A stretch of DNA of 64,000 nt, from IMG/VR virus record IMGVR_UViG_3300028800_000010, positions 2,637 through 66,636 of that record; one strand, 5' to 3'. The first letter of the stretch is position 1, and each line of letters starts with the position of its first letter. The position numbers and the translations under genes were made by a program. Of this stretch, positions 19,545-33,636 are shown in pieces. The stretch is from a virus. The notes beneath the pieces are model-generated. The model was given only the letters and a program-made list of their open reading frames with translations, was not told where the DNA came from and made no database searches.

Positions 19545-20428
19545 GCGATCCTATCTCGATGTCGCTTCAAAGCCCATGGCTTGATTTCGACACCCGCAAA
19601 TCGCATCCACTTCTCATATTTGCGTTGCCCGCGAACCTCGGGGTTCGTTGCTCGATAGAGCCATTCGCCGATGGTAACGGCGTCGATGTGCGAGTAGTCG
19701 AGAGTGAAGATAGGCCGGCAGTTGGATGCTCTCTCGCGGCCTGCGAAAACAGCAGGCCCTTTCTCGCACCGACAAATGATGCGACGAGCCACCGGGCATT
19801 GGGCAAAAATCGCGCGTTCAAGAGCTTCGACAAACTCTCCGGCGATCGAGCTGAACATGAACTTCATCAGATGCGTCTGTCGGCCCCCGCACTGATACCA
19901 GCCCCCATCGCTATCGAGCAACCCGCGGACGAAGTGCCTAACCAGGGTCGCGTCGAGATCTGGCCACTTCAGTTGCGGCCCCTTGTTTTCATCCAACCCG
20001 AACTCGGAGCGGAGCAACTGGTTGAAACTCTTGCTGCAAACGACGAGCCTCTTGCACCCTTCAGCCTGATAAATCCGAGATCGCCCACCGATGATCTTTT
20101 GCGCTTTGAGAAGAATGTCTTCGTCGTGGTTGTCTCTTGTGATGGAGCAGACGCTGCCCCTCGCATCGATACTGCCATCGGCGAAGAGAAGACCCAGCAC
20201 CCACGCTCGCTCGGCGTTAAGCTTTCCCCACGCCGTGTGGTTTCGCCGCGCGTCGACCGCCGCTGCTTCTTTCCAGTTGCGCAGAATCCCGGCCTTGAGA
20301 GCCTGGTACCGAGCCGCGCTCTGACTGCAGCCGACCGTAACGCTGATTGTTCTAACCCCCATGCCACCGCGATAGAGATCGAGGATTGTCTGCCTCGTGT
20401 TCTGAGAAAGCAACATAGCCATGACCAA
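19517..20428 (-). mobile_element. free-standing LAGLIDADG homing endonuclease with N-terminal HTH, antisense to the virion operon
   Basis: AWVLGLLFADG and FVRGLLDSDG (two LAGLIDADG motifs); ILDLY..GMGVRTIS..GCS HTH. Confidence 0.85.
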
Positions 20429-20450
20429 AAGTGTACGTCACTTTAGGTCA
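20422..20450. promoter_or_regulatory. imperfect inverted repeat between divergent HEG and ejection-protein starts
   Basis: TGACCAAAAGTG-TACGT-CACTTTAGGTCA (12-bp arms, 1 mismatch). Confidence 0.55.
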
Positions 20451-20467
20451 TAGAAAAGAGGTGTGTT

Positions 20468-21484
20468 ATTACAAAATCTCAAAGCGCGCAAACGTTCAAT
20501 ACGGCATCGGGGCAGCAAGCGACCACGTCGGGTAATGCCCAGTCGAGCTACGCCGCCGCGCAAGGCGACATCGGCGACTATAAAACCGCTCTCTCGAAAT
20601 ATGCCGCAGAGAACCCCTACGTTCAAGGTGGGCAATATCAGACTGCGGCTAATCAGCAGCTCGCCGACACGGCCGCTGGTGGCGCTCAGCAAGCCCAGCA
20701 GGCGATTACCGGCTCGATGGTCAGGAGCGGGCTGAATCCGACCGCGGCCGTTGCTGCCGGCGAACAGGTGGCAGAAAAGAACGCCCAGACACAAATGGAC
20801 TCCGAGGCTAAAGCCAATCAGTCGCGGCTGCAGGGTCTGGCCGGCTACCAGGGCAACGTGCTCGACGCGAGCGCCAAGCCCGAGCAGATGGAGCAGGGCC
20901 TCACCCAGACAGAGATGGGCGGCGCCGATAGCGCATTGGGGACCGAGAACCAGGCGGCACAGACTCCAAGCTTCTGGCAGGAGCTCGGCCAGGGCGCGAT
21001 CAGCGGTGCAGGACAATTTGCCGCCAATAAGTGGTGCCCGGCTGAAGGGTCGCTCTACTTACTAGCAGACGGCCGCGAAACCCCGGTCGAACACCTCAAG
21101 GTCGGCGATGAGTTGATGGGAATTGACGGCGACGCTCAGAAGATCGAGTCCATCGAATCAGCACTTGCTCGGATCCTCCTAGTGCGTTCCGATCAGGGGC
21201 ACAAACTCCGCAATTCTTGGACACATGCGTATGCCCTGCCGGGCGGGGGCTTCACCGTTGCAGCGCGCTCGATGGGCAAAAAGCTCGTTGCCGACCGCGG
21301 TCCGGCTCGCGTGATCAGCGTCCAAGATGGCGGCGTAGCCCGTGTCTTCAATGTGATCACCGGTGGGTCGCACACGTACCGGGCCGATGGAGTCTGGGCC
21401 CTAGGCGTTGGCGAAGCTGAGCGCTACGTGAGTATGGATGAATGGCAGCGAATCGGTGATCAGCTCATGCAGGAGGTGGTCTAA
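20468..21484 (+). CDS. ejection/pilot protein with C-terminal Hint domain; probable ATT start
   Basis: Frame open from 20447; SD GAGGTG before ATT; Ala/Gln-rich pilot-like N-half; Hint from Cys 21035 (CPAEGS..., VEHLKVGD, WTH, VFNV..HTYRADG). Confidence 0.7.
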   Translation: MTKSQSAQTFNTASGQQATTSGNAQSSYAAAQGDIGDYKTALSKYAAENPYVQGGQYQTAANQQLADTAAGGAQQAQQAITGSMVRSGLNPTAAVAAGEQVAEKNAQTQMDSEAKANQSRLQGLAGYQGNVLDASAKPEQMEQGLTQTEMGGADSALGTENQAAQTPSFWQELGQGAISGAGQFAANKWCPAEGSLYLLADGRETPVEHLKVGDELMGIDGDAQKIESIESALARILLVRSDQGHKLRNSWTHAYALPGGGFTVAARSMGKKLVADRGPARVISVQDGGVARVFNVITGGSHTYRADGVWALGVGEAERYVSMDEWQRIGDQLMQEVV

Positions 21485-23133
21485 TGGCCGGCGACTGGAA
21501 TACACTTGGGGATCCTTCACAGTTTCAGGGCCTTCCTTTTCCGGCCTCACCGATCACCGCCTCGGGCGAGGACCCCGATGAGGTGCGCGAACGGCTTGCC
21601 GCCCAGGCGCAGATGGGCAACGGCCATGCGGGGAGCGTCGTGCCCGGAACCCCGACCGCCACGCCTGTACAGCAGGTACAGCCGAAGCTGCCAAACGTCG
21701 AGTCCCCGGGCTTCAATGCCGATACGGCACGCCAGTCGATGACCGGCCAGCTCGCCTCGGGCCGCGACCTGACCCGAACCGCCGACCAGATGCAGCCCGA
21801 CCCTCAAATTGCCGAACTCGAGCAGAAGAAGATGCAGGACGAGGCCGCGACGCCAAACGCGGCAAACTACAAGCCCGGCTTCGGCACGCGCCTGCTCCGT
21901 GGTTTGAAGGGCGCCGGTCTCGGACTCGCCGAAGGCGGCATCTTCGGGATGGGTGTGGGCGCGATCGACCCGGGCCTGGTTCGCGGTGGAACTTCGTACG
22001 GCGACCCGACGGACGCTTACGATGCGGCGCTCAACAAGAACAAGCAGCTGGTCGCCCAGGACACCGAATCCCTCTCGAATGCCCAGGCCAACTTCAAGCA
22101 GGCGCAGGAGCTGAGAGAAAAGCAGCTCGGCGGCTACAAGGACTCTGGCGAAGCCTTCAGGGGCGCCGGCACGACGGCGACCACTCAGGAGGAAAATGAG
22201 ACCAAAGGGGCCCAGCTTCCGATCGACCAGGAGAAAGCCGACACGGAGCGAGACAAGGCAAACAATGTTCCTGAGCCGAAAACGTACGAGGAGATGGTGC
22301 TGCGCGCCCAGACCGAGAAGGATCCACAAAAGCGCGCGCAATATTGGAAAGCTGCAACCGACATTCAGAAGGCTGAGGTGCGCAGATTCCAGGCCGGTGC
22401 TAACGCCAACGGTCCCGTCGACATCGGAAATACGAAGCTCAGTGGCGATGCGTACCTGCAAACTTTGCCGGCCGGCATGGGCCCAACCATCAAGGCGATC
22501 GCCGAGGGTCGCATGGCGCCCCCTTCGCCGGGCAACCGCAGCAAGCAGGCGCAGGCGCTGCTGAACGCATTGAACATCTATGCCCCCGGCTACGATGCCA
22601 CGAAATATCCGACCTACGCTGCTACGCGGAAGGAGTTCACAGAAGGCAAAATCGGGCAGTCGATCAACTCCTTCAACACGTCCCTGAATCACCTCGATCG
22701 GCTCGAACAGAACATCCCGGATAACGGATACTTCGAAACTCTCAATGCACTTCGTAACGCAGCCAGCCCCTCGGGATCGGAGCGGTCACAGAAGCTTGCG
22801 GCCTTCGACGCGGACGCCACTGCGGTCGCCAATGAGGTAAGCAAAGCCTACAAGGGCGGTGTGATCAGCGAGGGCGAATACAACCACATGAACAGCCTGC
22901 TCAGCCGAAGCGCTGCGCCCGCGAAGATGAAGGCCAACATCGCGGAATTCCGCGAACTGCTACAGGGAAAACTCGAGAATTTCCAGAAGCAGTGGGAATC
23001 TGGCATGCCTCCCGGCGCTGTCAGCCCGCTTCAGACGATCCAGGGCTCGGTAACGGGAACCGGGGGGGGCGGCGGCGGATCGAGCAGTGGGGCTGGTGAC
23101 GACTGGTTTAAGCAGCATCCGGAGGCCAACTAG
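21484..23133 (+). CDS. internal virion / DNA ejection protein
   Basis: GGAGG RBS; helical Ala/Gln-rich with a Gly-rich hydrophobic segment. Confidence 0.65.
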   Translation: MAGDWNTLGDPSQFQGLPFPASPITASGEDPDEVRERLAAQAQMGNGHAGSVVPGTPTATPVQQVQPKLPNVESPGFNADTARQSMTGQLASGRDLTRTADQMQPDPQIAELEQKKMQDEAATPNAANYKPGFGTRLLRGLKGAGLGLAEGGIFGMGVGAIDPGLVRGGTSYGDPTDAYDAALNKNKQLVAQDTESLSNAQANFKQAQELREKQLGGYKDSGEAFRGAGTTATTQEENETKGAQLPIDQEKADTERDKANNVPEPKTYEEMVLRAQTEKDPQKRAQYWKAATDIQKAEVRRFQAGANANGPVDIGNTKLSGDAYLQTLPAGMGPTIKAIAEGRMAPPSPGNRSKQAQALLNALNIYAPGYDATKYPTYAATRKEFTEGKIGQSINSFNTSLNHLDRLEQNIPDNGYFETLNALRNAASPSGSERSQKLAAFDADATAVANEVSKAYKGGVISEGEYNHMNSLLSRSAAPAKMKANIAEFRELLQGKLENFQKQWESGMPPGAVSPLQTIQGSVTGTGGGGGGSSSGAGDDWFKQHPEAN

Positions 23134-26106
23134 ATGGCTGGTCCAGCCAACGGCGTACCGATTCTAGCCCCTGATGGGAAGGTCTATATGGTGCCTCCCG
23201 AACAGGTTGCCGAGGCCCACCTGCACGGCGGAAAGACGGCGCTGCGCATCGCCGCACCCGGCGGAAGCCAGCACTGGGTCCCCGTCGATCAAGCCGAGGA
23301 GGCGCTGTCGCACGGAGGCACGGTTGTGCGACAGGATGGGCGGCCCTACGCCCCCGGACAGGCCCCGGTGATCGTCGGCCGCAATAGCGCAGGGCAGCCG
23401 ATGTGGGGCAATGCTCCGGACGCAAAGAAAGAGGGTTTTCTTGGTTCGGTGGGCAGCGCCCTAGAGGGAGCTGTAAAGGGCGTCGCAGGGATGCTCGATC
23501 CTCGGTCGAGCGAAGACGAAAAGCGACGCGGGTTAACGAGCCCTTATGATGCAGCGCTCGCGCCGATCGAGCGCCTGGTCACGCCGCAGGTGGCTGAAGG
23601 TGAACGGGCCGTGCAGGAGGGCCGTGCTGGCCACATCCCCGAGGCTATAGGTCACGGGCTCGCGGCGATCACGCCGATGGTCGGACCGTGGGCAGCTTCG
23701 ACCGGAGAGAAAGTAGGGACGCAGGTAGGCGAAGGAGATCTGGCCGGCGCCGCCGGCACGCTGGCCGGAAACGCAGTGGTGGCTGCCGCCCCTGAGGTCC
23801 TGCCAAGGGCCGCACGGGCTGGAATTGAGACTACTCGCGGACGCCTGCAGGAGATCATCAATCCCCGCAAAACACTCGATACCCCGGTTGCACCCGGCGA
23901 TCTCACCCCAAAAGAAAGGTGGGAAGCCGCCAACCGAATGGGTGTGAATCTGGATCGTGCCCAGGCAACCAACGCTCCCGTGCCGAAGATGGCGAAACGG
24001 ATCACTGAGCAAAGCCTGCTGGGTAACCGCGCATTCGAGGCAAACAACGCTGCCAACGTGGAAGCTCTGCACGCGCATGCTGCCAATGTGCTCGACGACG
24101 CTGCGCCGCATATGACGAGAGAGGACTTCGGAAATCACGCCAAAGCTAAGCTCACTGCGCACCGAGCCAAGTTAGCCGACGAGCCAGGGCAGCGGGCGCA
24201 GGCGGATGCCTTGCTTAACAGCGCCGACCCTCGCTCTATGAGCAGGGAAGAATTCGGCAATGCGGCGAGTGAGGCACTCGAAAATCACCGCCTGGCCACC
24301 GACGATAAGATCAACGGCCTTTATCACGACCTGGACGGGCGCCTCGGCGATCTCCACCCCGATATGAAGGGTGTCAAAGAGAAGGCGGGGGCCATCTACA
24401 GCCAGAACAAGCGGTTCTATGAGAATCACCCTGATCTGTTGAAAGGCGCGGACGCGCGCGCATGGGCGATCATCAAAGACTTTGCGGGCATCGACGACAA
24501 AGCCCCTCGCGGTTCCAGCTCGGCCGCAACGAAGGCACCGGTCGATACATGGGCCGACCTCCAGAGGGCGCGTAGTCATCTGCTCGACTTGACGCGCGGC
24601 CCAGATTTTCTGGGTGAGTTGTCGACGGGATGGATCAAGCAGATGACGGGCGCTATCGACGACGCCATGACCTCCGCCGAGAAGACGCCGGGGCTCAAAG
24701 CGAAAGATGTGCAGCAGTTCCGTCAGGCTAATTCTCTCTACAAGGGGTTGAAAGAAACTTATGACAACCCGCAAAGCCCGTTCTATTGGGCTTCGCGCCA
24801 AGAGGGTTTGAAGGTTGCCGACCGGCTGAACAGTCTCGGTCCGGAGGACGCGCGTAAGTTTCGCGAGGTCATGAATCAGGGAGATAGGCCGGATCTGGTT
24901 GGTCAGCAGCAGCGGCAGTTTATGCAACGGCTGCTCGATCCGGCGGGCAACGGAGCGGCCGATCTCGCCGGTCTCAAGGCCCGCTGGACGAAGCTGCCGA
25001 AGGAGCAGACAGAGAGCCTGCTTGAGCCTGCGCACATGAAGGGGCTCAATGATCTGGCGGAAAAGTCGGCGACCGAAACGCCCTACGATGCTGCTGGTTC
25101 GCGATTGGCCCAGGTGATCAATGCGCCGGATGGGACAGCCGCAAGTCGTGCGATGTTTACCGACAGTGGTGCTTTGCGCTTAACACCGGAAGAAGTCCGG
25201 CAGATGGAACAGGCCGACCCCACACTCCTGCCGCAACTCAGGCGCCAAGCTATGCATCGCCTGTTCGATCCCTCGGATAACGGCGCTACGGATCTCCGCA
25301 ACTTCAGCGCCCGCTGGAATCGCGCCCAGAAAGAGCCGCTCGCTGGAGTGCTGACCCCTGATCAGATGCAGGACCTTGACGATATGTCTAGCGTCGCGAG
25401 GACCGTAAACCTGCCCGCTAATCCGAGTGGTACCGCTGTAGTCTTACAGCCGGCTGAAGAGGGCGGCCGGCTGGTCCGCTCAGCAGTAGGGGCGTTGCCA
25501 GAGATGCTCGGCGCAGGCGCGGGTGCCGTTGCGGGTGGACCGATCGGTGCGGGGGTAGGCGCCGCTGCGGGTGCAGCTGCAGACACGGTTGGGAGGGGTG
25601 TTTTGGCCCGTCGATTGGTGAATCCGGAAGCGACTGCGGCCGCCATGGAACATACACTACCGGTCCCACTCGCCGCGGCTGTAAAGAAGGCTGCCGGTGA
25701 TGTTGATCTCGGCCGCGGAACCGCAGTGGCCAGCGGCGCGGAAGCCGGCAATCCCGATTCTGCTGAGCAACGATGGAAAGAGGTGAATGCCGGGCGGCCG
25801 CCTCAGCCTTCGCCCTCCGCGACGCCGGGCACTGTGCAGCCTGCGTTGCAGCTGAACCCTGCCGCTGGCGCGGCGGTGCCCGCCTCAGCCCCGAAACCCG
25901 CGCTCAAGGCGCCGGTTCCGCCGGCCATGAAGGATGCGGCTCGACTTTCAGTCGCGAACGATCAAATCAGTGACGCGCTCGCGAACCCGCCGGCCCCGCC
26001 ACAGCCTCCGGCACCCGATGGAGCCACGCACGAGGTTGTTGATGCTGATGGAAAGACGGTTCTCGGTCACATGGTGGACGGAGCTTATGTTCCGCTAACA
26101 CAATGA
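23134..26106 (+). CDS. large internal virion / DNA ejection protein
   Basis: 990 aa helical, GAGAGAVAGG membrane-like segment, internal duplications. Confidence 0.65.
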   Translation: MAGPANGVPILAPDGKVYMVPPEQVAEAHLHGGKTALRIAAPGGSQHWVPVDQAEEALSHGGTVVRQDGRPYAPGQAPVIVGRNSAGQPMWGNAPDAKKEGFLGSVGSALEGAVKGVAGMLDPRSSEDEKRRGLTSPYDAALAPIERLVTPQVAEGERAVQEGRAGHIPEAIGHGLAAITPMVGPWAASTGEKVGTQVGEGDLAGAAGTLAGNAVVAAAPEVLPRAARAGIETTRGRLQEIINPRKTLDTPVAPGDLTPKERWEAANRMGVNLDRAQATNAPVPKMAKRITEQSLLGNRAFEANNAANVEALHAHAANVLDDAAPHMTREDFGNHAKAKLTAHRAKLADEPGQRAQADALLNSADPRSMSREEFGNAASEALENHRLATDDKINGLYHDLDGRLGDLHPDMKGVKEKAGAIYSQNKRFYENHPDLLKGADARAWAIIKDFAGIDDKAPRGSSSAATKAPVDTWADLQRARSHLLDLTRGPDFLGELSTGWIKQMTGAIDDAMTSAEKTPGLKAKDVQQFRQANSLYKGLKETYDNPQSPFYWASRQEGLKVADRLNSLGPEDARKFREVMNQGDRPDLVGQQQRQFMQRLLDPAGNGAADLAGLKARWTKLPKEQTESLLEPAHMKGLNDLAEKSATETPYDAAGSRLAQVINAPDGTAASRAMFTDSGALRLTPEEVRQMEQADPTLLPQLRRQAMHRLFDPSDNGATDLRNFSARWNRAQKEPLAGVLTPDQMQDLDDMSSVARTVNLPANPSGTAVVLQPAEEGGRLVRSAVGALPEMLGAGAGAVAGGPIGAGVGAAAGAAADTVGRGVLARRLVNPEATAAAMEHTLPVPLAAAVKKAAGDVDLGRGTAVASGAEAGNPDSAEQRWKEVNAGRPPQPSPSATPGTVQPALQLNPAAGAAVPASAPKPALKAPVPPAMKDAARLSVANDQISDALANPPAPPQPPAPDGATHEVVDADGKTVLGHMVDGAYVPLTQ

Positions 26107-26117
26107 AAGTATTGCCC

Positions 26118-26903
26118 TTAGTTAAGCGACATCAGGGTATCAATCAAACGGCTCACATCTTTGTAGTCACGATTCGATGTTGAGCAAAATGAGCAGTCCG
26201 CGGTCGCTTCAATTGGCCCGGAAGTGCTTTGTCTCAGATATTGTGTGTTTGCTAGCAGGTTCCTTGTTTCTCCATTAAAAAGCATTCGGAGAACTGTTTC
26301 TGCACCATTGGAATAGTTCGTTGTAACCGTGATCTCAACGTAACAAATATCGGAGTCGTCACTGTGGTTCGCCGTAGCTATCTTTACATTGGGGGTGAGC
26401 AGCTCTTTCCTCGTGATGTCATCCACGTAGCTATCAGTCAGAGCTCTCTCAAGAGATGAACAGCTTGGCGCATTTTGCCGGTTGGCTTTTTTCGACGTAT
26501 CCAAGTCTAGGGAGGACCCTACAAGCTCATAGGAAGACTTGCGACCTCCGCGCGTTACTTGGTATTTCTTTCCATCGAAATACAAAGATACCTGCTCGCC
26601 AGGAACGGCTTTTTTCATCACATCGTTTCCGCTTGGCCTTAGGACGTAAACGTACTTTCCAGCCTCCACTGTGTACTGCCGTGTCTCGATATCACTGCAA
26701 CTACTGCTTACAGAGGAGACCTGAGAAGGCGGTTTTGAAGTATCCCAAGAGGGTGCATACGAAGGTGTCGCGGAACAAGCTGAGGCGTCGGAAACAGTTC
26801 GAAAACTTACCAACCGGCCCTTCTGCAAGTCTGTAGGTTGAGCTACCGCAGCAAGTCCGCAAATGAACAAAAAACACGTTGTAATGCGAGATTCAATCAT
26901 CAT
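26118..26903 (-). CDS. secreted moron protein (lower GC), possible superinfection exclusion
   Basis: Antisense insertion among ejection genes; signal peptide AVA-Q; 6 Cys in mature part. Confidence 0.6.
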   Translation of the reverse strand: MMIESRITTCFLFICGLAAVAQPTDLQKGRLVSFRTVSDASACSATPSYAPSWDTSKPPSQVSSVSSSCSDIETRQYTVEAGKYVYVLRPSGNDVMKKAVPGEQVSLYFDGKKYQVTRGGRKSSYELVGSSLDLDTSKKANRQNAPSCSSLERALTDSYVDDITRKELLTPNVKIATANHSDDSDICYVEITVTTNYSNGAETVLRMLFNGETRNLLANTQYLRQSTSGPIEATADCSFCSTSNRDYKDVSRLIDTLMSLN

Positions 26904-26955
26904 GAGCGAATGCCCTTTTCTGAGGCAGTCAGTCTAGCACCGGAAACCAAGCAGA

Positions 26956-29652
26956 ATGTCTACAACTTCCGTGTCACCGAGTTCGAAAGTACCCTTGCGG
27001 CCACCCGCTGGTGCCCTACTCCGGCCGCTCTCCCCGGCGGGCGGCCTGCCGCCGGGCGCATTGTTGCGGCCACTCGCTGGGCGCATAAGTCATAGATATG
27101 ACGAGGTGTCAGACGGCGAAAAAGCCAACGTAGTTCCACGTGGAACAGAAAGACAGCGTGCCGAGGAGTTTCCGCCTATCGGTGAAACCGAAGCCGAGAC
27201 CGGACGGCCCGTATTGCAGCAGTCTCCCCGGCCCGAGGTGAACCAGGCCGCGGCGACTGCCGAGCACCCGGCAATTCTCAAAAAACTCCGGGATCTCGTG
27301 TCCCCCATCCGGGGCGCGGTCTTGGCCGGCAACCGGGACGAGAAAGATGAAGACCGCCTCGAAGAGAAGATGGCCGCCGAAGACCAATCGCCGCGCACGG
27401 TGCGCGACTATTCGGGCTTCCGCATCGCTGTTGACTCGCCAGCCGCCCACGACGCTGTGGCTGATCGACTCCGGCAGCGCTTTGAGGTGCCGAACGAGCA
27501 GGATGAGTTTGAGACCGGCGACCCAGAAACCGGCTTCCACGGGCACACGCTCCAGGTGCGCGAACCCGGATCGCCGGTCTCGCACGAGGTGCAGGTGCTG
27601 CCGCGCGAAGTGGCCGAAGCGGCCGACGATCGCCATGCGCTTTATGAGAAGGCGCGCGAGGGAGACGCAGACGCCGCTGCCCAGTTGAAGCAGGCCAACG
27701 AAGCCGACTGGCAGAAGTTTCAAGCGCGCAACGCGCAGAACCCGGAAGGAGGCGCCAATGACCGACTAACCCAGACCGAGCAACCAACCAAAAAGGCAGC
27801 CGAGGGGGCCGAGCCGAAGTTCAAGTTCGGCTCCACTCAGGCCAGCATTCCCGAGGACTCGGACGCCGCCGCAGCGCTCAAAACCGCGCGCGAGAAGATT
27901 GCGCCCGAGGACCGTGCCGGCGATGTGAATGACGCCAAGGGCGGCCTGGTCGAAGATCCCCACGTCACGGTGCGCTACGGGATCAAGGGCGACGATGTTG
28001 AGGGGATCAAGAAGTTCCTCGAGTCGCAAGCTCCTTTCGAGGCGACGCTGGGCAAGACCGACAAGTTCCCGGCGAGCGAGCACTCCGACGGTGCCGCGCC
28101 CATCATTGCGCCGATCGATGCGCCCGAGATGCACCGCATCCAGGCGGAACTCGAGCAGCATGGCGAATTCGCGCCGTCGAGTTTCCCGGAATATAAACCC
28201 CACGCCACCCTCGGCTATGTGAAGCCTGAGGCCGCCGAGAAGTACGTCGGCATGGGCGATACCGAAGGCAAGAAGTTCACTGTCAACTCGATCGCCATCT
28301 CCGATCGCAATGGCAACCTGACGGAGGTCCCGCTCAAAAGCAAAAAGTCTGAAGGAAACTCTCAAGAATCTGATAGAACCTCTCAAACACGGAAAGCCCC
28401 GGTCCCACCGGACCGCAGGCCGAAGCCTGAGAAATGGAGCAAAGGCGACTGGTTCCTGGTCCGAGAGCAGGCCCGCGGCAACTATCGCGCGGGTGAAGTC
28501 ACCTATTTTAACGAAGGTGTCAATGGAGCCAAGCCTGGTGGACGGTCCCGCGTCGGCGAGACGAAGCTCGATGAGATCCCGCGCGGGGCGCTCCGCATCC
28601 TTGGCGCGGACAGAAAAATCAACCCCGTGACCGATCTGCCCGCGGAGGACGCCATCATCGAGCGGACCGGGAAGAAGCTGCCCGAACTCACTGCGCAACT
28701 GATCGAGAAGAATACAGAAGACGGCGTGACCACGCTCGCGACCGATGCAGCCAAGGGGATGTTCCCGGAATTCAAAGCTGATCCAGTGAAGAATGACCGG
28801 CTCGTCTGCGCTTCTGCCAAGGCGGTGCGTGATGCGGCTCTCGAGACGGTACTGGCCGCGCCCGTTGACCCGAAGCGGTCCGAGGTGCTCATTGGCACGG
28901 CATCGCCGGGCTCGGGAAAGACGGCCGGTCTGGTGGGCAGCGGAAACCTGCCGGGAGTAGGCATCAAAATCGAGGCTATCGCCGATGACTACAACGAATT
29001 CTCTAAGCTGATCCAGGACATCGTTGCTTCTGGCCGTAAGCCCGTGGTGCAGTGGGTTTACGTTGACGACCCCGCCAAGACGGTCCGCCGCATGTTCCTC
29101 CGGGCGGCTGGTCACGAGGGGAGGCCGGGCATCGGGCGGACGGTGCAGCTGAAGTACATGGCCGACGCCTATACTGCTATCCCCAGCGTTCTCGAACAGA
29201 TTCGAGAGCACTTCGGGAGCAAGGTTAAGATACTGGCCGTCGACAACTCGGGGCCTGCGGGTACTGCTAAGGTTACTTCAGATATCAACCCGATGCTTGC
29301 CGCCCTCCGCCAAAAGTCCTATAATCAAGTGTTCGAGGAGATGACCAATGAAACCCGCAAGCTCCAGTCTGAAGGGCACTTCGACAGCGACCGCGGAAAG
29401 GCCATCCTTGAAGCCGCCCAGACCAGTGACCCGCCCACAAGCGACGAAGCCCAAGGAGGATCCGCTGGTCGCGGAGCTTCAGGCGGGGTGGGATCGGGCC
29501 GCGGAAAAAATGAAGGACCCGAATTGGCAGGTTCCGTACTAAACAGAATTCCTACAAACGACAGCGCACGGCAAACGGCCGCTCCCAGGAGCGGCCGTTC
29601 TGTTGCGTTGGAAAATTTCAAGGAAGCGGCCCGGCGAAAGGGAGTGCGCTAG
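26956..29652 (+). CDS. polyvalent protein: RelA/SpoT-like NTase + 2H phosphoesterase (Acb1/57B-like) + zeta-toxin-like P-loop kinase
   Basis: RDYSGFRI...GFHG...HEVQ; PHVTVRYG...YKPHATLGY (two HxT motifs); SPGSGKT...R..GRTV. Confidence 0.75.
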   Translation: MSTTSVSPSSKVPLRPPAGALLRPLSPAGGLPPGALLRPLAGRISHRYDEVSDGEKANVVPRGTERQRAEEFPPIGETEAETGRPVLQQSPRPEVNQAAATAEHPAILKKLRDLVSPIRGAVLAGNRDEKDEDRLEEKMAAEDQSPRTVRDYSGFRIAVDSPAAHDAVADRLRQRFEVPNEQDEFETGDPETGFHGHTLQVREPGSPVSHEVQVLPREVAEAADDRHALYEKAREGDADAAAQLKQANEADWQKFQARNAQNPEGGANDRLTQTEQPTKKAAEGAEPKFKFGSTQASIPEDSDAAAALKTAREKIAPEDRAGDVNDAKGGLVEDPHVTVRYGIKGDDVEGIKKFLESQAPFEATLGKTDKFPASEHSDGAAPIIAPIDAPEMHRIQAELEQHGEFAPSSFPEYKPHATLGYVKPEAAEKYVGMGDTEGKKFTVNSIAISDRNGNLTEVPLKSKKSEGNSQESDRTSQTRKAPVPPDRRPKPEKWSKGDWFLVREQARGNYRAGEVTYFNEGVNGAKPGGRSRVGETKLDEIPRGALRILGADRKINPVTDLPAEDAIIERTGKKLPELTAQLIEKNTEDGVTTLATDAAKGMFPEFKADPVKNDRLVCASAKAVRDAALETVLAAPVDPKRSEVLIGTASPGSGKTAGLVGSGNLPGVGIKIEAIADDYNEFSKLIQDIVASGRKPVVQWVYVDDPAKTVRRMFLRAAGHEGRPGIGRTVQLKYMADAYTAIPSVLEQIREHFGSKVKILAVDNSGPAGTAKVTSDINPMLAALRQKSYNQVFEEMTNETRKLQSEGHFDSDRGKAILEAAQTSDPPTSDEAQGGSAGRGASGGVGSGRGKNEGPELAGSVLNRIPTNDSARQTAAPRSGRSVALENFKEAARRKGVR

Positions 29653-29852
29653 CGCCGCGCCTCTGGGCTTGCGCGCGGCGGCGTCATCGGTGAGTAGAGC
29701 GCCTTGAAGGCTGCGATGCTGGCTGCGCGAAGGGCTGTGGTGCGCTGGAAGTGGACGCCCTGGAGCCTTTCCCCCTGCTTGCCGGTACAGGGACGGCCGA
29801 CGCCGGCGCGGCAGAAGGGGCAGGCGATCTGATAGTTGCGACGGGGTCTCAT
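29649..29852 (-). CDS. phage zinc-finger protein
   Basis: CPFC.A..G.PC...H..R motif. Confidence 0.6.
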   Translation of the reverse strand: MRPRRNYQIACPFCRAGVGRPCTGKQGERLQGVHFQRTTALRAASIAAFKALYSPMTPPRASPEARR

Positions 29853-29856
29853 AGGG

Positions 29857-30156
29857 CTAGGCGGCCCGGCGGGCCTTCATAAACCAGACGGGAGCCTCGT
29901 CCTCAAGGAAATTCCTAACAGCGCGCCGAACCCACGTTTTTGGTGGCCAGCCCGTTTCGGCGGCGAGATCGGCGATGCGAAGGCGCTGGCTCCGGGTCAG
30001 GATGGCCAGTTCGATGTCGCCAAACGCGGGCATCGGTTTGAGGCTGTTGGTGAAGTTGTAGATTGCGGCGGCGACTTTGAGAGCGGCCCTGCGGTCACGA
30101 GCGGCCTTGTTGTTGCGGCGGTTGGATTTGCGGGTGGTACGCTTAACTGTAGCCAT
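29857..30156 (-). CDS. small basic protein, possibly ribbon-helix-helix
   Basis: GGAGG RBS; C-terminus (VRRAVRNFLEDEAPVW) resembles that of 51693-51878 (VDRAVKNMLETEAPVW). Confidence 0.55.
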   Translation of the reverse strand: MATVKRTTRKSNRRNNKAARDRRAALKVAAAIYNFTNSLKPMPAFGDIELAILTRSQRLRIADLAAETGWPPKTWVRRAVRNFLEDEAPVWFMKARRAA

Positions 30157-30237
30157 TTGGTTGCCCCTCCTAACAGGGCGGCTTCTTGGTTAGGGTTCCG
30201 TTCGGTGTTCAAGCACCGGGCGGAGCCCGTTTGAGTT

Positions 30238-30438
30238 TCAGGAGCGTTTGCGGTAGTTCTGCTCCTTGTAGGCCTTGACGAAATCGGCTTCTTCCTGGGA
30301 CCACAGCCGATGGCTGATCCCGCTGATTTTCAAGTTGTTCTCAGGCTCCGGAATCTCCTTGGCGTAAAGCCAGCGGAGCAAGGTCGATTTATTTACCCCG
30401 GCAGCCTCTGCAACTTGAGATGTGGAGTAAATCTTCAT
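30238..30438 (-). CDS. MerR-type HTH DNA-binding protein (Xis/BldC-like), probably leaderless
   Basis: YSTSQVAEAAGVNKSTLLRW...IPEP...HRLWS motif. Confidence 0.75.
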   Translation of the reverse strand: MKIYSTSQVAEAAGVNKSTLLRWLYAKEIPEPENNLKISGISHRLWSQEEADFVKAYKEQNYRKRS

Positions 30439-30445
30439 AAACATG

Positions 30446-30474
30446 ACTGTAGGCGTTAACAATGTATTTGTCAA
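30446..30474 (-). promoter_or_regulatory. sigma70 promoter
   Basis: TTGACA-17bp-TACAGT, 7 bp before ATG 30438. Confidence 0.7.
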
Positions 30475-30508
30475 GGTAATTATTGATTTTTGTTAATTTC
30501 TTCCGTGT

Positions 30509-30576
30509 AACTTAAGTTGCATCACATTGCACCAGGTTTCACCATGTTGGTTGCACCGTGTTGCAGCATGTAACGC
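30509..30576 (+). repeat. array 1 of 10-bp direct repeats (consensus TTGCACCATG)
   Basis: AACTTAAGTT palindrome, then TTGCATCACA, TTGCACCAGG, TTTCACCATG, (TTGG), TTGCACCGTG, TTGCAGCATG, TAACGC. Confidence 0.75.
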
Positions 30577-30801
30577 CCCGTGACGGGAGGACCGCGGCGC
30601 CGTGGCCCAGAAATGAGGATCAGTCAGACGGCCGCCTCCATCAGGGGTACCTTTCCGGGGAGGCGCCCAGCTTTGCAACGTTGACAGCGGGCCGCCCTTT
30701 ACGGGTTGCTGTGCGTAGCCGGGTCCCTTGCTGCGTGAGTGGGGCGGACTCTACCATTCCCAGACTATTCTTGAGCCGCGAGACCGTCTGACCAAACCTG
30801 C

Positions 30802-30845
30802 AACTTAAGTTACACCATGTTTCACAGTGTTGAACCGCGTAACGC
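30802..30845 (+). repeat. array 2 of 10-bp direct repeats
   Basis: AACTTAAGTT, then TTACACCATG, TTTCACAGTG, TTGAACCGCG, TAACGC. Confidence 0.75.
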
Positions 30846-30869
30846 GAGATTCGCCCGAGGTGCCCCGTA

Positions 30870-31553
30870 ATGCCCCCCAGGAAAGATGTGCCGCTCACCG
30901 TGCACGAGCAGCGCTTTGTCATTCACTACATTCGCGAAGGAGCCGCTCCCGAAGTCGCCTATATCGCCGAGCGCAAGGCGCGCTTGAAGAAGGGCGAGGG
31001 CGAGAAGATGCTCCGCCGGCGTCACGTGCAGGAAGAGATCCACCGCCGGAAGATTCTGGTCGAGTACGAGGAAAACCGCCTCATCGCGAAAGACAACGTC
31101 GCGACCGTCCAGCGCGACGACGAGCGCGACCTGGTGACGCTCCATAAGATCGAGTCGGCCCTCGACAAGGTCATCGCGCTCGACGCCGAAAAGCACGGGA
31201 CAACGGTCCTGAAGGCGATCGAGCTGGGGTTGATCTACACCGGATCGATTCGCGACGGCAACAAGGTCAAGCTCTCGACCATCGACCCGCTCGGCACGGA
31301 CAAAAACACGAAGCCCGACGACGGGGAGATGAAGCCGCGCGAGGACGGGTTCTATACCTCGATCTTCGCCAACATGAAGGCCGATGGCGCGGCGGCGCCG
31401 CCCGCCGAGCCGGTTGAGCCGGCCGAGCTGATGCCGGCCGAAGACCCGAAGCCCCTGCCGACGGTCCCCGTGGTCGCGGCCACGCCCCCGAAGCCCGCGC
31501 CCAAACCTGCTGCTAAGAAAGAAATCAAGCCGCCTCAGATCGAAATCACGTAG
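30870..31553 (+). CDS. terS: terminase small subunit
   Basis: LT..EQRFV..Y...AY...MLR...VQEEI pattern and KAIEL; upstream of TerL. Confidence 0.65.
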   Translation: MPPRKDVPLTVHEQRFVIHYIREGAAPEVAYIAERKARLKKGEGEKMLRRRHVQEEIHRRKILVEYEENRLIAKDNVATVQRDDERDLVTLHKIESALDKVIALDAEKHGTTVLKAIELGLIYTGSIRDGNKVKLSTIDPLGTDKNTKPDDGEMKPREDGFYTSIFANMKADGAAAPPAEPVEPAELMPAEDPKPLPTVPVVAATPPKPAPKPAAKKEIKPPQIEIT

Positions 31554-31587
31554 TCTTTGTACCATCTGTACCCCGAGGGAAGAACCC

Positions 31588-31860
31588 ATGTTGAAGGTAC
31601 TGAATCTGCGCAATGTGCCCGAAGAACTGATGCGCGAACTGAAGGCTGCGGCGGCTCTGGCTGATGAGCCGTTTCACCCGTTTTGTGTTGCCCTGATCAA
31701 AGCTGGCCTGCTGCACTGGCGCGTCTCCCAGCCAGGCTATCCGTTTATCCCGCTCGAAGACCACGTGGCGCCGACCTATGGCGGCATCCAGAGAACCGCA
31801 GCGCCTGAATCCCCCGCATCGCCCACCCCTGAACCGCCTCAAGAAATCGAAATCACCTAA
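31588..31860 (+). CDS. Arc/FitA-like ribbon-helix-helix protein
   Basis: LNLRNVPEELMRELKAAA. Confidence 0.6.
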   Translation: MLKVLNLRNVPEELMRELKAAAALADEPFHPFCVALIKAGLLHWRVSQPGYPFIPLEDHVAPTYGGIQRTAAPESPASPTPEPPQEIEIT

Positions 31861-31863
31861 CGC

Positions 31864-33636
31864 ATGTCCACGAAATCCGCAGTGACCGCGGCGGTCCTCT
31901 CCGCAGCGCTCACCGGCTGGCTCGCCGACGCGGCCCTGAAGGCCCACGTCGACTGGGGCGCCGAGTTTGCGCGCATGCGCGAGCTCGCTCCGCTGCCCTT
32001 CCCGCAGCTGCAGCCGCCTCCCTTCGATCTCCATCCCCCTGGTTGGGAGCCGATCTGGTGGCCGATCAATTCGGCCCAGCAGATGGCCATCAACTGCCGC
32101 GCCGAGCTGCTGCTCTTTGGCGGCCAGTCGGGCGGCGGCAAGACGTCGTTCCTCGCGGCCGATGCCATGCAGGAGTACAAGAATCCCTACCTGCGCTCCC
32201 TGATTCTCCGCACCACCAAGACAGAGATGGGCGAAATCTCGGATCAGATGCGGAAGATGTACGAGCCGCTCGGCGCCAAGTGGAAGCGGCCCAACAAGTT
32301 TGAAGACTACGCCTGGGTGTTCCCGAACGGCGGGTCAATCACCCCGGGCTACATCCGCAACGAGAAGGATCTCAACCGCTACCAGGGCAACCCGAAGTCG
32401 CACGTGGGTCTGGACGAGAGCGGCCAGCATCCGGAGAAGCTCATTCGCCGGCTGCTCGGCTGGCTCGCGGCACCCAGGCGCTCGGGCCTCTTTGTGCGCG
32501 CGCGCTTCGGATCGAACCCCGGCGGCCCCGGCCACGGCTGGCAGTCCTCGGTGTTCCTCCGAGGACGCTGCCCGGTGCACTACCCGGCCGATCATGCGGA
32601 TCTGAGCCCGAGCGAGACCAGCGCCTTCCCGGGGCGGGTCTACAAGGGCGCCCGCTGGCCGTCTGACGGCTCGCCGGTCTACAAGACCACCGCCTTCATT
32701 CCGGCCCGCCTGATCGACAACCCGCTCTATGACCGGGTGAAGCTTGAGTCCCTGCTCACCCAGACCGCAGATATCCGGGAACAGTTGCTTTGGGGCTGCT
32801 GGTGCAACGCCGAAGGCCTCTACTTCCCCTTCCTCCGCCCCGAGTATCAGGTGCCGTTCCAGACCATCGACCGCCAGTGGTGGTGGGGGCACTTCATCTC
32901 GATCGATTACGGCTACGGCAACTCGGCCGCGGCAGCCGGCCTCTACGCGATCGCGCCCTCGGGCGTCGTCTACAAGGTCGGGGAGCGCATCGAGAAGAAG
33001 ATGCAGTCCAAAGAGTTCGCGCGGCGTCTCGTGAAAGATGGGTTCCCGGAAACGCATAACCCGCGGCAGGGCCCCATGCAGGCCTGGACCCGGAAGCTGC
33101 GGCCCCGGGATCCGGAAGGGCCGCGCATCCTCTGGGCCATGTTCGACCCGGCCAACGATCAGCACACCGGCACCGGCAAATCGAACTATGAGCAGATGGG
33201 CGAAGTCTTTCACGAGGCCGGGATTCCGACGATGCTCGGCGCGCACGACCCGATGGGCAACGCCCAGAACCTTTACTCCGGCCTGGTCAACCGCGAGCTC
33301 GTGACGACGACCGCCTGCCCGTACACCTACAACACGCTGATTTCGCGCGTGGTCGACGATCGCAAGGCCGTGAAGAAGGAGAAGGGCAACCCCCAGGACG
33401 ATTGCTATGACGAGACATCGTATGCCTGGAACACGTACAAGCAGGAGAGCGTGAAGCCGGAGCTGGTGAGCCTGGAACAGGAGATCGACCAGATGCGCAA
33501 GGATGGGGTCGACGAGACCTCGATCGCGCGCTACAGCTGGCGCCGGCAGCAGGAAATCCGCGCCGCTGCGCAGCAGGCCGAACGGGGAATCGCGCTCACC
33601 GGGAAACGCATCGGCCGGCGGATCACCCGGCGTTAG
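31864..33636 (+). CDS. terL: terminase large subunit
   Basis: GGQSGGGKT Walker A, GLDE Walker B, SNPGGPGH, IDYG/DPA/DDCYD nuclease motifs. Confidence 0.9.
   Translation: MSTKSAVTAAVLSAALTGWLADAALKAHVDWGAEFARMRELAPLPFPQLQPPPFDLHPPGWEPIWWPINSAQQMAINCRAELLLFGGQSGGGKTSFLAADAMQEYKNPYLRSLILRTTKTEMGEISDQMRKMYEPLGAKWKRPNKFEDYAWVFPNGGSITPGYIRNEKDLNRYQGNPKSHVGLDESGQHPEKLIRRLLGWLAAPRRSGLFVRARFGSNPGGPGHGWQSSVFLRGRCPVHYPADHADLSPSETSAFPGRVYKGARWPSDGSPVYKTTAFIPARLIDNPLYDRVKLESLLTQTADIREQLLWGCWCNAEGLYFPFLRPEYQVPFQTIDRQWWWGHFISIDYGYGNSAAAAGLYAIAPSGVVYKVGERIEKKMQSKEFARRLVKDGFPETHNPRQGPMQAWTRKLRPRDPEGPRILWAMFDPANDQHTGTGKSNYEQMGEVFHEAGIPTMLGAHDPMGNAQNLYSGLVNRELVTTTACPYTYNTLISRVVDDRKAVKKEKGNPQDDCYDETSYAWNTYKQESVKPELVSLEQEIDQMRKDGVDETSIARYSWRRQQEIRAAAQQAERGIALTGKRIGRRITRR

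Follow-up and report, generated by a model that had tools for sequence, protein, structure and literature searches.

Why a phage should carry, in a single open reading frame (ORF), motifs of three different enzymes acting on nucleotides is the question raised by ORF P0001 of the virus record IMGVR_UViG_3300028800_000010 from IMG/VR. The record comprises 66,636 bp, has direct terminal repeats and is estimated to be 100% complete; we analyzed a 64,000-nucleotide stretch of it (bases 2637-66636, hereafter the window). By profile searches and structural models, P0001 is predicted to consist of three separately folded enzyme domains, each with its catalytic residues kept: a RelA/SpoT-homologue (RSH) pyrophosphokinase domain, a 2H phosphoesterase domain and a zeta-toxin-like P-loop kinase domain. 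Judging from its sequence, it is a compact member of the polyvalent-protein class already described in 2017 (PMC5512222). We consider it fairly probable that P0001 is an effector which is packaged with the ejection proteins and injected, and whose three enzymes act on host nucleotide chemistry.

Three predicted enzyme domains in one open reading frame

A preliminary description, made from the sequence alone, had placed a single ORF of 898 amino acids (aa) at exactly the coordinates given in Table 1. Both coordinates and length were confirmed (898 open codons, followed by a stop), and all quoted motifs are present: DYSGFRI (aa 151-157), GFHGHT (193-198), HEVQV (210-214), PHVTVRYG (335-342), PHATLGY (415-421), SPGSGKT (650-656) and GIGRTV (725-730). 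The three-domain architecture proposed there also held up in Pfam, in profile searches of PDB and in AlphaFold2 models compared with Foldseek. Long antisense ORFs overlap the gene; homology backs the plus-strand frame only. An index of 5.8 billion proteins contained 32 homologues of P0001 at E <= 1e-3, and a profile built from 16 of the homologues retrieved 3570 proteins at E <= 1e-3, 476 of them at E <= 1e-30, from 1.84 billion representatives. In public annotation the ORF is called as P0002 with 812 aa, beginning at residue 87; the window positions concerned are 26956-27216. Because the first 86 residues are kept in homologues, the ATG at 26956 is to be preferred as start. Models made with AlphaFold2 of aa 90-470 (predicted local distance difference test score, pLDDT, 89.2) and of aa 466-830 (17 alignment rows, pLDDT 88.7, predicted template modelling score 0.86) bear out all three folds.

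The first domain was matched by the Pfam RelA_SpoT family (PF04607) at E = 4.6e-3 and 17.6 bits, which is under the curated cut-off of 27. When a profile of 22 Rel domains was searched against PDB, 20 of the 23 matches were to small alarmone synthetases or GTP pyrophosphokinases of the RelA/SpoT family (best E = 1.2e-4) and three to a cytochrome c at E ~0.03. Residues R127, K130, K138, D151 and E211 were invariant in all 22 aligned Rel domains, as was Y230. D151 and E211, counted from the profile alignment, correspond to D264 and E324 of Bacillus subtilis Rel, which we take to be the Mg-binding Asp and the catalytic Glu; basic residues of the domain align with the ATP site, and their roles are likewise presumed. 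By its predicted model, the synthetase-domain fold belongs to the RSH superfamily and is nearest to RelQ and RelP. Identity to these small alarmone synthetases (PDB 5ded, 6ewz, 6fgk) is 13-20%, and the P0001 domain differs from them in being fused into a multi-enzyme protein, in its sub-cut-off Pfam score and in its acceptor motif. This motif, of the GYxxxH type, reads GFHGHT in P0001, which agrees with the degeneracy noted in the preliminary description: the aromatic residue is retained and the His lies one position off. The motif has been lost by deletion from 10 of the 22 aligned relatives. Because the motif is degenerate here and deleted in those relatives, the acceptor, and hence the Rel product, cannot be read from the sequence. 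A search with only the Rel domain gave 20 non-self matches, and 13 of these also carried the 2H family.

The second domain matched the Pfam family 2_5_RNA_ligase2 at E = 1.3e-11 (45.2 bits, cut-off 27) and PHROG 755, annotated as RNA ligase, at E = 4.3e-7. The duplicated 2H fold is present, and both HxT motifs were effectively invariant among the alignment rows carrying the domain. Pfam LigT_PEase gave no match for P0001 at E <= 1 and was weak in two of the nine homologues scanned (19-21 bits, cut-off 23.3). The domain had earlier been described as Acb1-like, and its main job could then be that of an Acb1-type nuclease directed against CBASS (an anti-phage defence that signals through cyclic oligonucleotides), which destroys 3'-5' cyclic oligonucleotide immune signals at injection. 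It shares with phage Acb1 (PDB 7t26, PF23474) the 2H fold and the HxT/HxT tetrad, which is the catalytic arrangement of Acb1 (PMC9117128), and degradation of defence nucleotides has been proposed for polyvalent 2H domains (PMC5512222). The Pfam Acb1 model matched P0001 weakly (E = 9.1e-4, 19.4 bits, under the cut-off of 27) and its cut-off was passed by one of nine homologues scanned (P0007, 33.3 bits). In Foldseek, the penguinpox cyclic GMP-AMP (cGAMP) phosphodiesterase (9bkq) came first at E = 6e-6, with Acb1 (7t26) at E = 1.7e-5. However, TT0787, plant cyclic phosphodiesterase (CPDase), Usb1 and LigT also fell within E 6e-6 to 1.7e-5, and because these values all lie within one order of magnitude, Foldseek does not separate the 2H subfamilies. 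Among entries of BFVD, generic "2'-5' RNA ligase superfamily" or "cyclic phosphodiesterase" proteins led, whereas Acb1-named entries appeared only from rank 25. In addition, P0001 scored 45.2 bits with 2_5_RNA_ligase2 versus 19.4 with Acb1, and its domain of ~180 aa sits within a larger protein, whereas Acb1 is a free protein of ~150 aa. The Acb1-type role appears unlikely to us. Of the earlier assignment, the 2H fold and the two HxT motifs stood, whereas the Acb1 model remained under its cut-off, with scores below those for LigT/CPDase-type enzymes. According to models and profiles, the domain is a genuine 2H enzyme that forms a clade of its own and is predicted to stand a little nearer to the LigT/CPDase group than to Acb1; its closest 2H structures are of the LigT/ThpR and CPDase types (PDB 1iuh, 5h7e, 1vdx, 5ldi). 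The domain-by-domain Foldseek comparison suggested in the preliminary description recovered the RelQ/RelP and zeta_1 folds and, for the 2H domain, matches to both Acb1 and LigT.

Several leading BFVD entries lie within proteins of ~900-1,300 aa labelled DdrB-like, ART-PolyVal-like, capsid morphogenesis or structural. We also observed an alignment of 427 columns (E = 1.7e-8) between the Rel-2H model and an 883-aa protein of Gordonia phage GMA2 (A0A0K0N719); the protein is labelled "Putative structural protein", a label on which no claim rests here, and through it a cultured phage might offer a relative associated with virions.

The third domain was matched by phmmer against PDB to the Neisseria gonorrhoeae zeta_1 toxin at E = 1.2e-5, and by a 16-sequence profile at E = 1.3e-9. 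Foldseek with the model of aa 466-830 likewise returned this toxin (6eph; E = 1.6e-14, TM score 0.63, root mean square deviation 3.1, 280 columns), then classical zeta (1gvn, E = 6.8e-6), PezT (3.3e-3) and AvrRxo1 (1e-2). D597 lies within LATDAAK, and the Walker A motif SPGSGKT contains K655 and T656. In the alignment, D597 falls on Asp56 of zeta_1 and K655 on Lys115, and both P0001 residues were invariant in all 17 aligned sequences. In zeta_1, the P-loop Lys115 is catalytic, its mutation abolishing toxicity, and Asp56 is catalytically important; the enzyme phosphorylates UDP-N-acetylmuramic acid (UDP-MurNAc), UDP-N-acetylglucosamine (UDP-GlcNAc) and UDP-glucose at the 4'-OH (PMC5923241). The P0001 domain shares with this toxin (PDB 6eph) the fold, a catalytic Asp located N-terminal to the P-loop and the aligned Asp and Lys (PMC5923241). 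It differs in that identity is 18% and the second domain of zeta_1 is lacking in P0001, so that ~280 of 394 residues align.

A P-loop kinase next to a 2H domain could also be read as an RNA-healing enzyme which repairs tRNA cut by host anticodon nucleases. A kinase and a 2H cyclic phosphodiesterase form the healing module of fungal and plant tRNA ligase, a pairing that P0001 resembles, and the closest 2H structures are of the LigT/CPDase type. However, the kinase was of the zeta or UDP-sugar-kinase type in Foldseek, not of the polynucleotide-kinase type, and in some relatives its place is taken by GGDEF. Searches of the complete phage genome for Rnl2-type ligase (PF09414) and RtcB gave 0 matches with positive controls, which also sets P0001 apart from LigT/CPDase-type enzymes, as does the missing LigT_PEase match. 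Moreover, polyvalent-type 2H domains are described as never associated with RNA ligases (PMC5512222). RNA healing is in our view a very improbable function of P0001.

Relatives of P0001 and the polyvalent-protein class

Scanning IMG/VR with the two 2H motifs yielded 291 stretches, 225 of which encode a relative, which points to a large, viral family; 80 loci with 81 ORFs were kept. The 2H-bearing ORFs in these loci range from 345 to ~4,200 aa. Most of the 81 ORFs contain 2H alone (57), followed by Rel-2H (18) and 2H-Rel (4), with one case each of 2H-zeta and of the Rel-2H-middle-zeta arrangement. Among 164 database homologues, 13 carry all three domains together, and in others GGDEF replaces the kinase. 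Three giant relatives scanned with Pfam had GGDEF, SNF2/ResIII/Helicase_C or ddrB-ParB domains added. At several loci (L002, L009, L017, L033, L068, L077 and others), single ORFs of 3,500-4,200 aa stand at the same position; giant ORFs carry Rel, 2H, GGDEF, SNF2 helicase or ddrB-ParB, and most of their length is without annotation.

Because its relatives embed the same 2H or Rel-2H cassette in giant multi-enzyme ORFs, P0001 is placed as a compact member of the polyvalent class. Iyer, Burroughs, Anand, de Souza and Aravind described 2H, RelA/SpoT, GGDEF, zeta-like kinase and ddrB-like ParB as domains of polyvalent proteins, argued from genomic context that these proteins are injected, and proposed their 2H domains to be RNases or degraders of defence nucleotides (PMC5512222). 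With all three P0001 domain types on that list and with giant multi-enzyme relatives at hand, the polyvalent framing of the preliminary description was upheld. P0001 has three disparate enzyme domains on one polypeptide encoded by a phage ORF, and its gene stands in a late or packaging context, features it shares with polyvalent proteins (PMC5512222). There are also differences. Where the main text of that study names RelA/SpoT, it is for Spirochaetes and epsilon-proteobacterial (pro)phages, phages of non-pylori Helicobacter and MuF fusions, and where it names zeta-like kinase, it is for elements of Verrucomicrobium or Proteobacteria and for MuF fusions (PMC5512222). In the present analysis, no MuF or portal fusion was seen. 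"Acidobacteria" occurs 0 times in its main text, and the exact triad may stand in its figures or supplement (PMC5512222).

Acidobacteriota is the phylum in which most related loci were found: 10 of 14 in species-representative genomes were in its assemblies, two of them on contigs of more than 600 kb, and prophage-like copies occur in Acidobacteriaceae and Terriglobales assemblies. The location of relatives on long bacterial contigs is consistent with prophages. Known phages offered little: megablast of window positions 20000-32000 against 50,697 phage records gave no match, and tblastn of P0001 matched two records, in both cases through the 2H part only. The only cultured phage matched was Tunturiibacter phage Tunturi_5, by the 2H part of one protein; the text of the Tunturi virus paper mentions neither RNA ligase nor zeta, polyvalent or ejection. 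NCBIfam had no match for P0001 or three of its neighbours.

Gene context and candidate ejection proteins

The P0001 gene follows a 23-kb co-directional block, and genes for the small and large terminase subunits (TerS and TerL) lie 1.2-2.2 kb downstream of it. In the related loci, TerL was found downstream of the 2H gene in 15 of 80. Related loci repeat the gene order g1057-g364-g149-g255-g549 ahead of their 2H gene, on its upstream side (g1057 in 31 of 80 loci, g549 in 27 of 80 by iterated search). A g549-like gene is thus present in 27 loci; in 17 of them, the start of the 2H-bearing ORF is within 40 nt of the end of that gene, and in 20 the 2H-bearing ORF measures 1,500 aa or more. In four, an extra gene separates the g549-like gene from a short stand-alone 2H protein, which is the layout seen here with g990; one locus (L012) has a g990 homologue together with a 712-aa Rel-2H protein. 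We take the order and rough sizes of g255-g549-g990 to match those of gp7, gp20 and gp16 of phage P22. The language-model-based Atlas gave two weak leads, its scores of 0.90-0.94 being reached by 4 to 10 in 100 shuffled proteins: g990 was nearest to the cluster of PF26808, Phage_P22_gp16 (0.94), and the named cluster nearest to g549 was PF16928, Inj_translocase, corresponding to P22 gp20 (0.90). Because synteny and Atlas leads point the same way, the best reading is that P0001 corresponds to the cargo of a third ejection protein, here encoded as a separate gene. The preliminary description had put P0001 at the end of an ejection module. The synteny g255-g549-(g990)-[2H protein]-...-TerL and the two Atlas leads make this position plausible, although the support is indirect.

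It is also conceivable that P0001, without being injected, is produced by the prophage or in the course of infection and serves in the cytoplasm as a toxin or superinfection-exclusion module, whose RSH and zeta-type domains would arrest the cell in the manner of toxin-antitoxin or abortive systems. The phage is temperate, with an integrase (E = 7.2e-13) on the other arm of its genome, where a GroEL-like chaperonin and a BCS1-like AAA ATPase are also encoded. Relatives occur on the long bacterial contigs mentioned above, accessory genes of opposite strand stand on both sides of the P0001 gene, and its zeta_1 relative is the lytic toxin of a toxin-antitoxin pair (PMC5923241). However, no antitoxin-like partner was recognized adjoining the gene; no neighbouring ORF matched an antitoxin family, although epsilon antitoxins are small and divergent and their absence is not thereby shown. 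Moreover, the gene is co-directional with the long upstream block and with the terminase, and the cassette lies within a giant ORF abutting the g549-like gene in 17 of 27 relatives. Stand-alone short forms of the zeta-like domain numbered only two, on contigs of 1.9 and 2.6 kb. We regard a toxin or exclusion function as distinctly unlikely.

The 261-aa opposite-strand ORF that precedes the P0001 gene had no family match and no relative in the 80 viral loci, and it looks like an accessory gene inserted between g990 and the P0001 gene. G+C content, ~0.62 over the window, drops to 0.571 at 26001-28000, the lowest of all 2-kb intervals. The opposite-strand genes downstream of P0001 encode small regulators, with matches to PF24623 (zinc finger, E = 1.2e-10) and HTH_17 (HTH_17/MerR-like, E = 1.7e-4; HTH, helix-turn-helix). 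A plus-strand ORF of 132 aa at 29836-30234 is probably spurious, as it overlaps opposite-strand genes with family matches or protein-like sequence. Among the upstream genes, g255 has homologues (loci L002-L074) in which the alignment begins near residue 85 of the homologue itself; because of this, g255 probably starts upstream of its first ATG at 20717 (20447-21484). For g549 (21484-23133), a glycine-rich stretch at profile positions 180-266 gave 60 listed matches, all to the N-terminus of influenza HA2 (fusion-peptide region). Homology of g549 to HA2 was rejected, as the best E of its 16-sequence profile, 0.011, was sub-significant; the likeness is probably one of composition, and would fit a membrane-inserting ejection protein.

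The regions of P0001 outside the three enzymes were also inspected. Near the N-terminus, a tandem xPxGALLR motif occurs at 27004-27069, its copies ~15 residues apart. A regular expression for the LPPGAxLR type found it in 17 of 166 proteins, always within the first 45 residues, and had no other match in the window. The carriers were 448-1,135 aa long, with one exception of 2,860 aa, and the motif was never inside giant forms; it may serve as a signal for targeting or docking. Directly 5' of the Rel domain sits an ETGRPVLQ linker motif (27196-27219), and motifs of this type (E-x-T-G-R-x-V-L-Q) precede the Rel domain in 25 of 166 proteins, short and giant alike. Comparable G-S-V-L-x strings are seen close to domain boundaries and within the C-terminal tail (e.g., AGSVLN, 29527-29544). 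Such strings may be linkers or processing sites. In the small middle domain, three strands were modelled, with pLDDT >90 for model residues 31-50, and no separate structural match was found for it. Of the C-terminal tail, the model covers aa 826-830 only, and the last three residues of this second model have pLDDT <50.

Table 1. Coordinates of P0001, its predicted domains and neighbouring features in the window
Feature	Position	Strand	Basis or remark
Whole ORF P0001, predicted polyvalent three-enzyme protein	26956..29652	+	898 aa, homologues
N-terminal region, aa 1-95	26956..27240	+	kept in 13/32 homologues
RelA/SpoT-homologue (small-alarmone-synthetase-like) pyrophosphokinase domain (predicted), aa 96-270	27241..27765	+	profile and model
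2H phosphoesterase domain (predicted), aa 285-465; HVT 336-338, HAT 416-418	27808..28350	+	Pfam and model
Small beta-rich middle domain and linker, aa 466-575	28351..28680	+	kept in a subset of homologues
Zeta-toxin-like P-loop kinase (predicted), ng_zeta1 subclass, aa 576-825	28681..29430	+	PDB phmmer, profile, Foldseek
Gly/Ser/Arg-rich C-terminal tail, aa 826-898	29431..29649	+	kept in 3/32 homologues
g255, g549, g990, candidate ejection proteins (P22 gp7/gp20/gp16-like)	20717..26106	+	synteny and Atlas leads
261-aa ORF between g990 and the P0001 gene	26118..26903	-	hydrophobic signal-peptide-like N-terminus, low GC
67-aa phage zinc-finger protein, 99-aa ORF, 78-aa HTH protein	29649..30474	-	small regulators downstream
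Hairpin, 16-bp stem	30193-30228
Terminase small subunit	30870-31553	+	Pfam Terminase_2, E 2.2e-5
Terminase large subunit	31864-33636	+	phrog_979, E 2.9e-26

Predicted role of the enzymes if injected

If P0001 is a compact injected effector, it would be packaged alongside the ejection proteins and enter the cell with the DNA, and its three enzymes would work in parallel on host nucleotide chemistry in the first minutes of infection. Targets for cleavage by the 2H domain may be second messengers of nucleotide type, or phosphate linkages of the 2',3'-cyclic or 2'-5' kind. As for the Rel domain, it would transfer pyrophosphate to an acceptor's 3'-OH; because the fold of this domain is nearest to RelQ and RelP, (p)ppGpp-like synthesis is the default guess. 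The kinase could phosphorylate a hydroxyl of a UDP-sugar or other nucleotide sugar. Overall, this would amount to takeover of the host or to counter-defence.

Several observations, besides the shuffled-protein control of the Atlas scores and the degenerate acceptor motif of the Rel domain, weigh against this reading. The opposite-strand ORF at 26118-26903 splits the P0001 gene from its co-directional upstream genes and opposite-strand regulators follow it; because opposite-strand genes stand on both sides, the P0001 gene may have its own transcription. The ten large co-directional neighbours (3347-26106; 261-1,057 aa) gave 0 Pfam and 0 PHROG matches at E <= 1e-3, and phmmer against PDB found no match for g860 and g1057 and one chance-level match for g419 (E = 0.053). 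Ten further ORFs yielded TerL and two matches at E ~0.007-0.009 only; the structural genes of this phage lineage are unrecognizable by current profile libraries. With regard to the enzymes, RelA_SpoT was matched in eight of nine homologues scanned, all below the cut-off (best E = 1.2e-5, 26.0 bits versus 27). Pfam Zeta_toxin (PF06414) had no match for P0001 at E <= 1, its cut-off (22.3 bits) being passed by two of nine homologues (27.1 and 23.0 bits). Packaging, injection and the substrates of the domains are predictions.

A bolder proposal, to which we give little credence, is that Rel and 2H, instead of being two weapons independent of each other, form a coupled maker and breaker for a ribose-2'/3'-modified nucleotide, either an alarmone made by the phage or an immune signal of the host that has been edited. 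The zeta/GGDEF slot would then swap the chemistry, and the cassette would be standard cargo of the third ejection protein throughout a large lineage of Acidobacteriota phages.

The prediction made in 2017 was that polyvalent proteins are multi-enzyme weapons delivered by injection (PMC5512222). No published biochemical test of their nucleotide-directed domains came up, the one literature search on this point, for the combination of Rel, 2H and ejection, returning no paper. With its 898 aa, P0001 is small, well modelled (pLDDT ~89) and has intact predicted active sites, and it could be expressed domain by domain, in contrast to relatives of 2,000-4,000 aa. The analysis also brings out a Rel-2H cassette that recurs in a little-known lineage of soil phages, at a fixed position adjoining candidate ejection genes. 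If the 2H domain does degrade immune messengers, or the Rel domain does make an alarmone, at injection, counter-defence would extend from expressed early proteins to pre-packaged enzymes.

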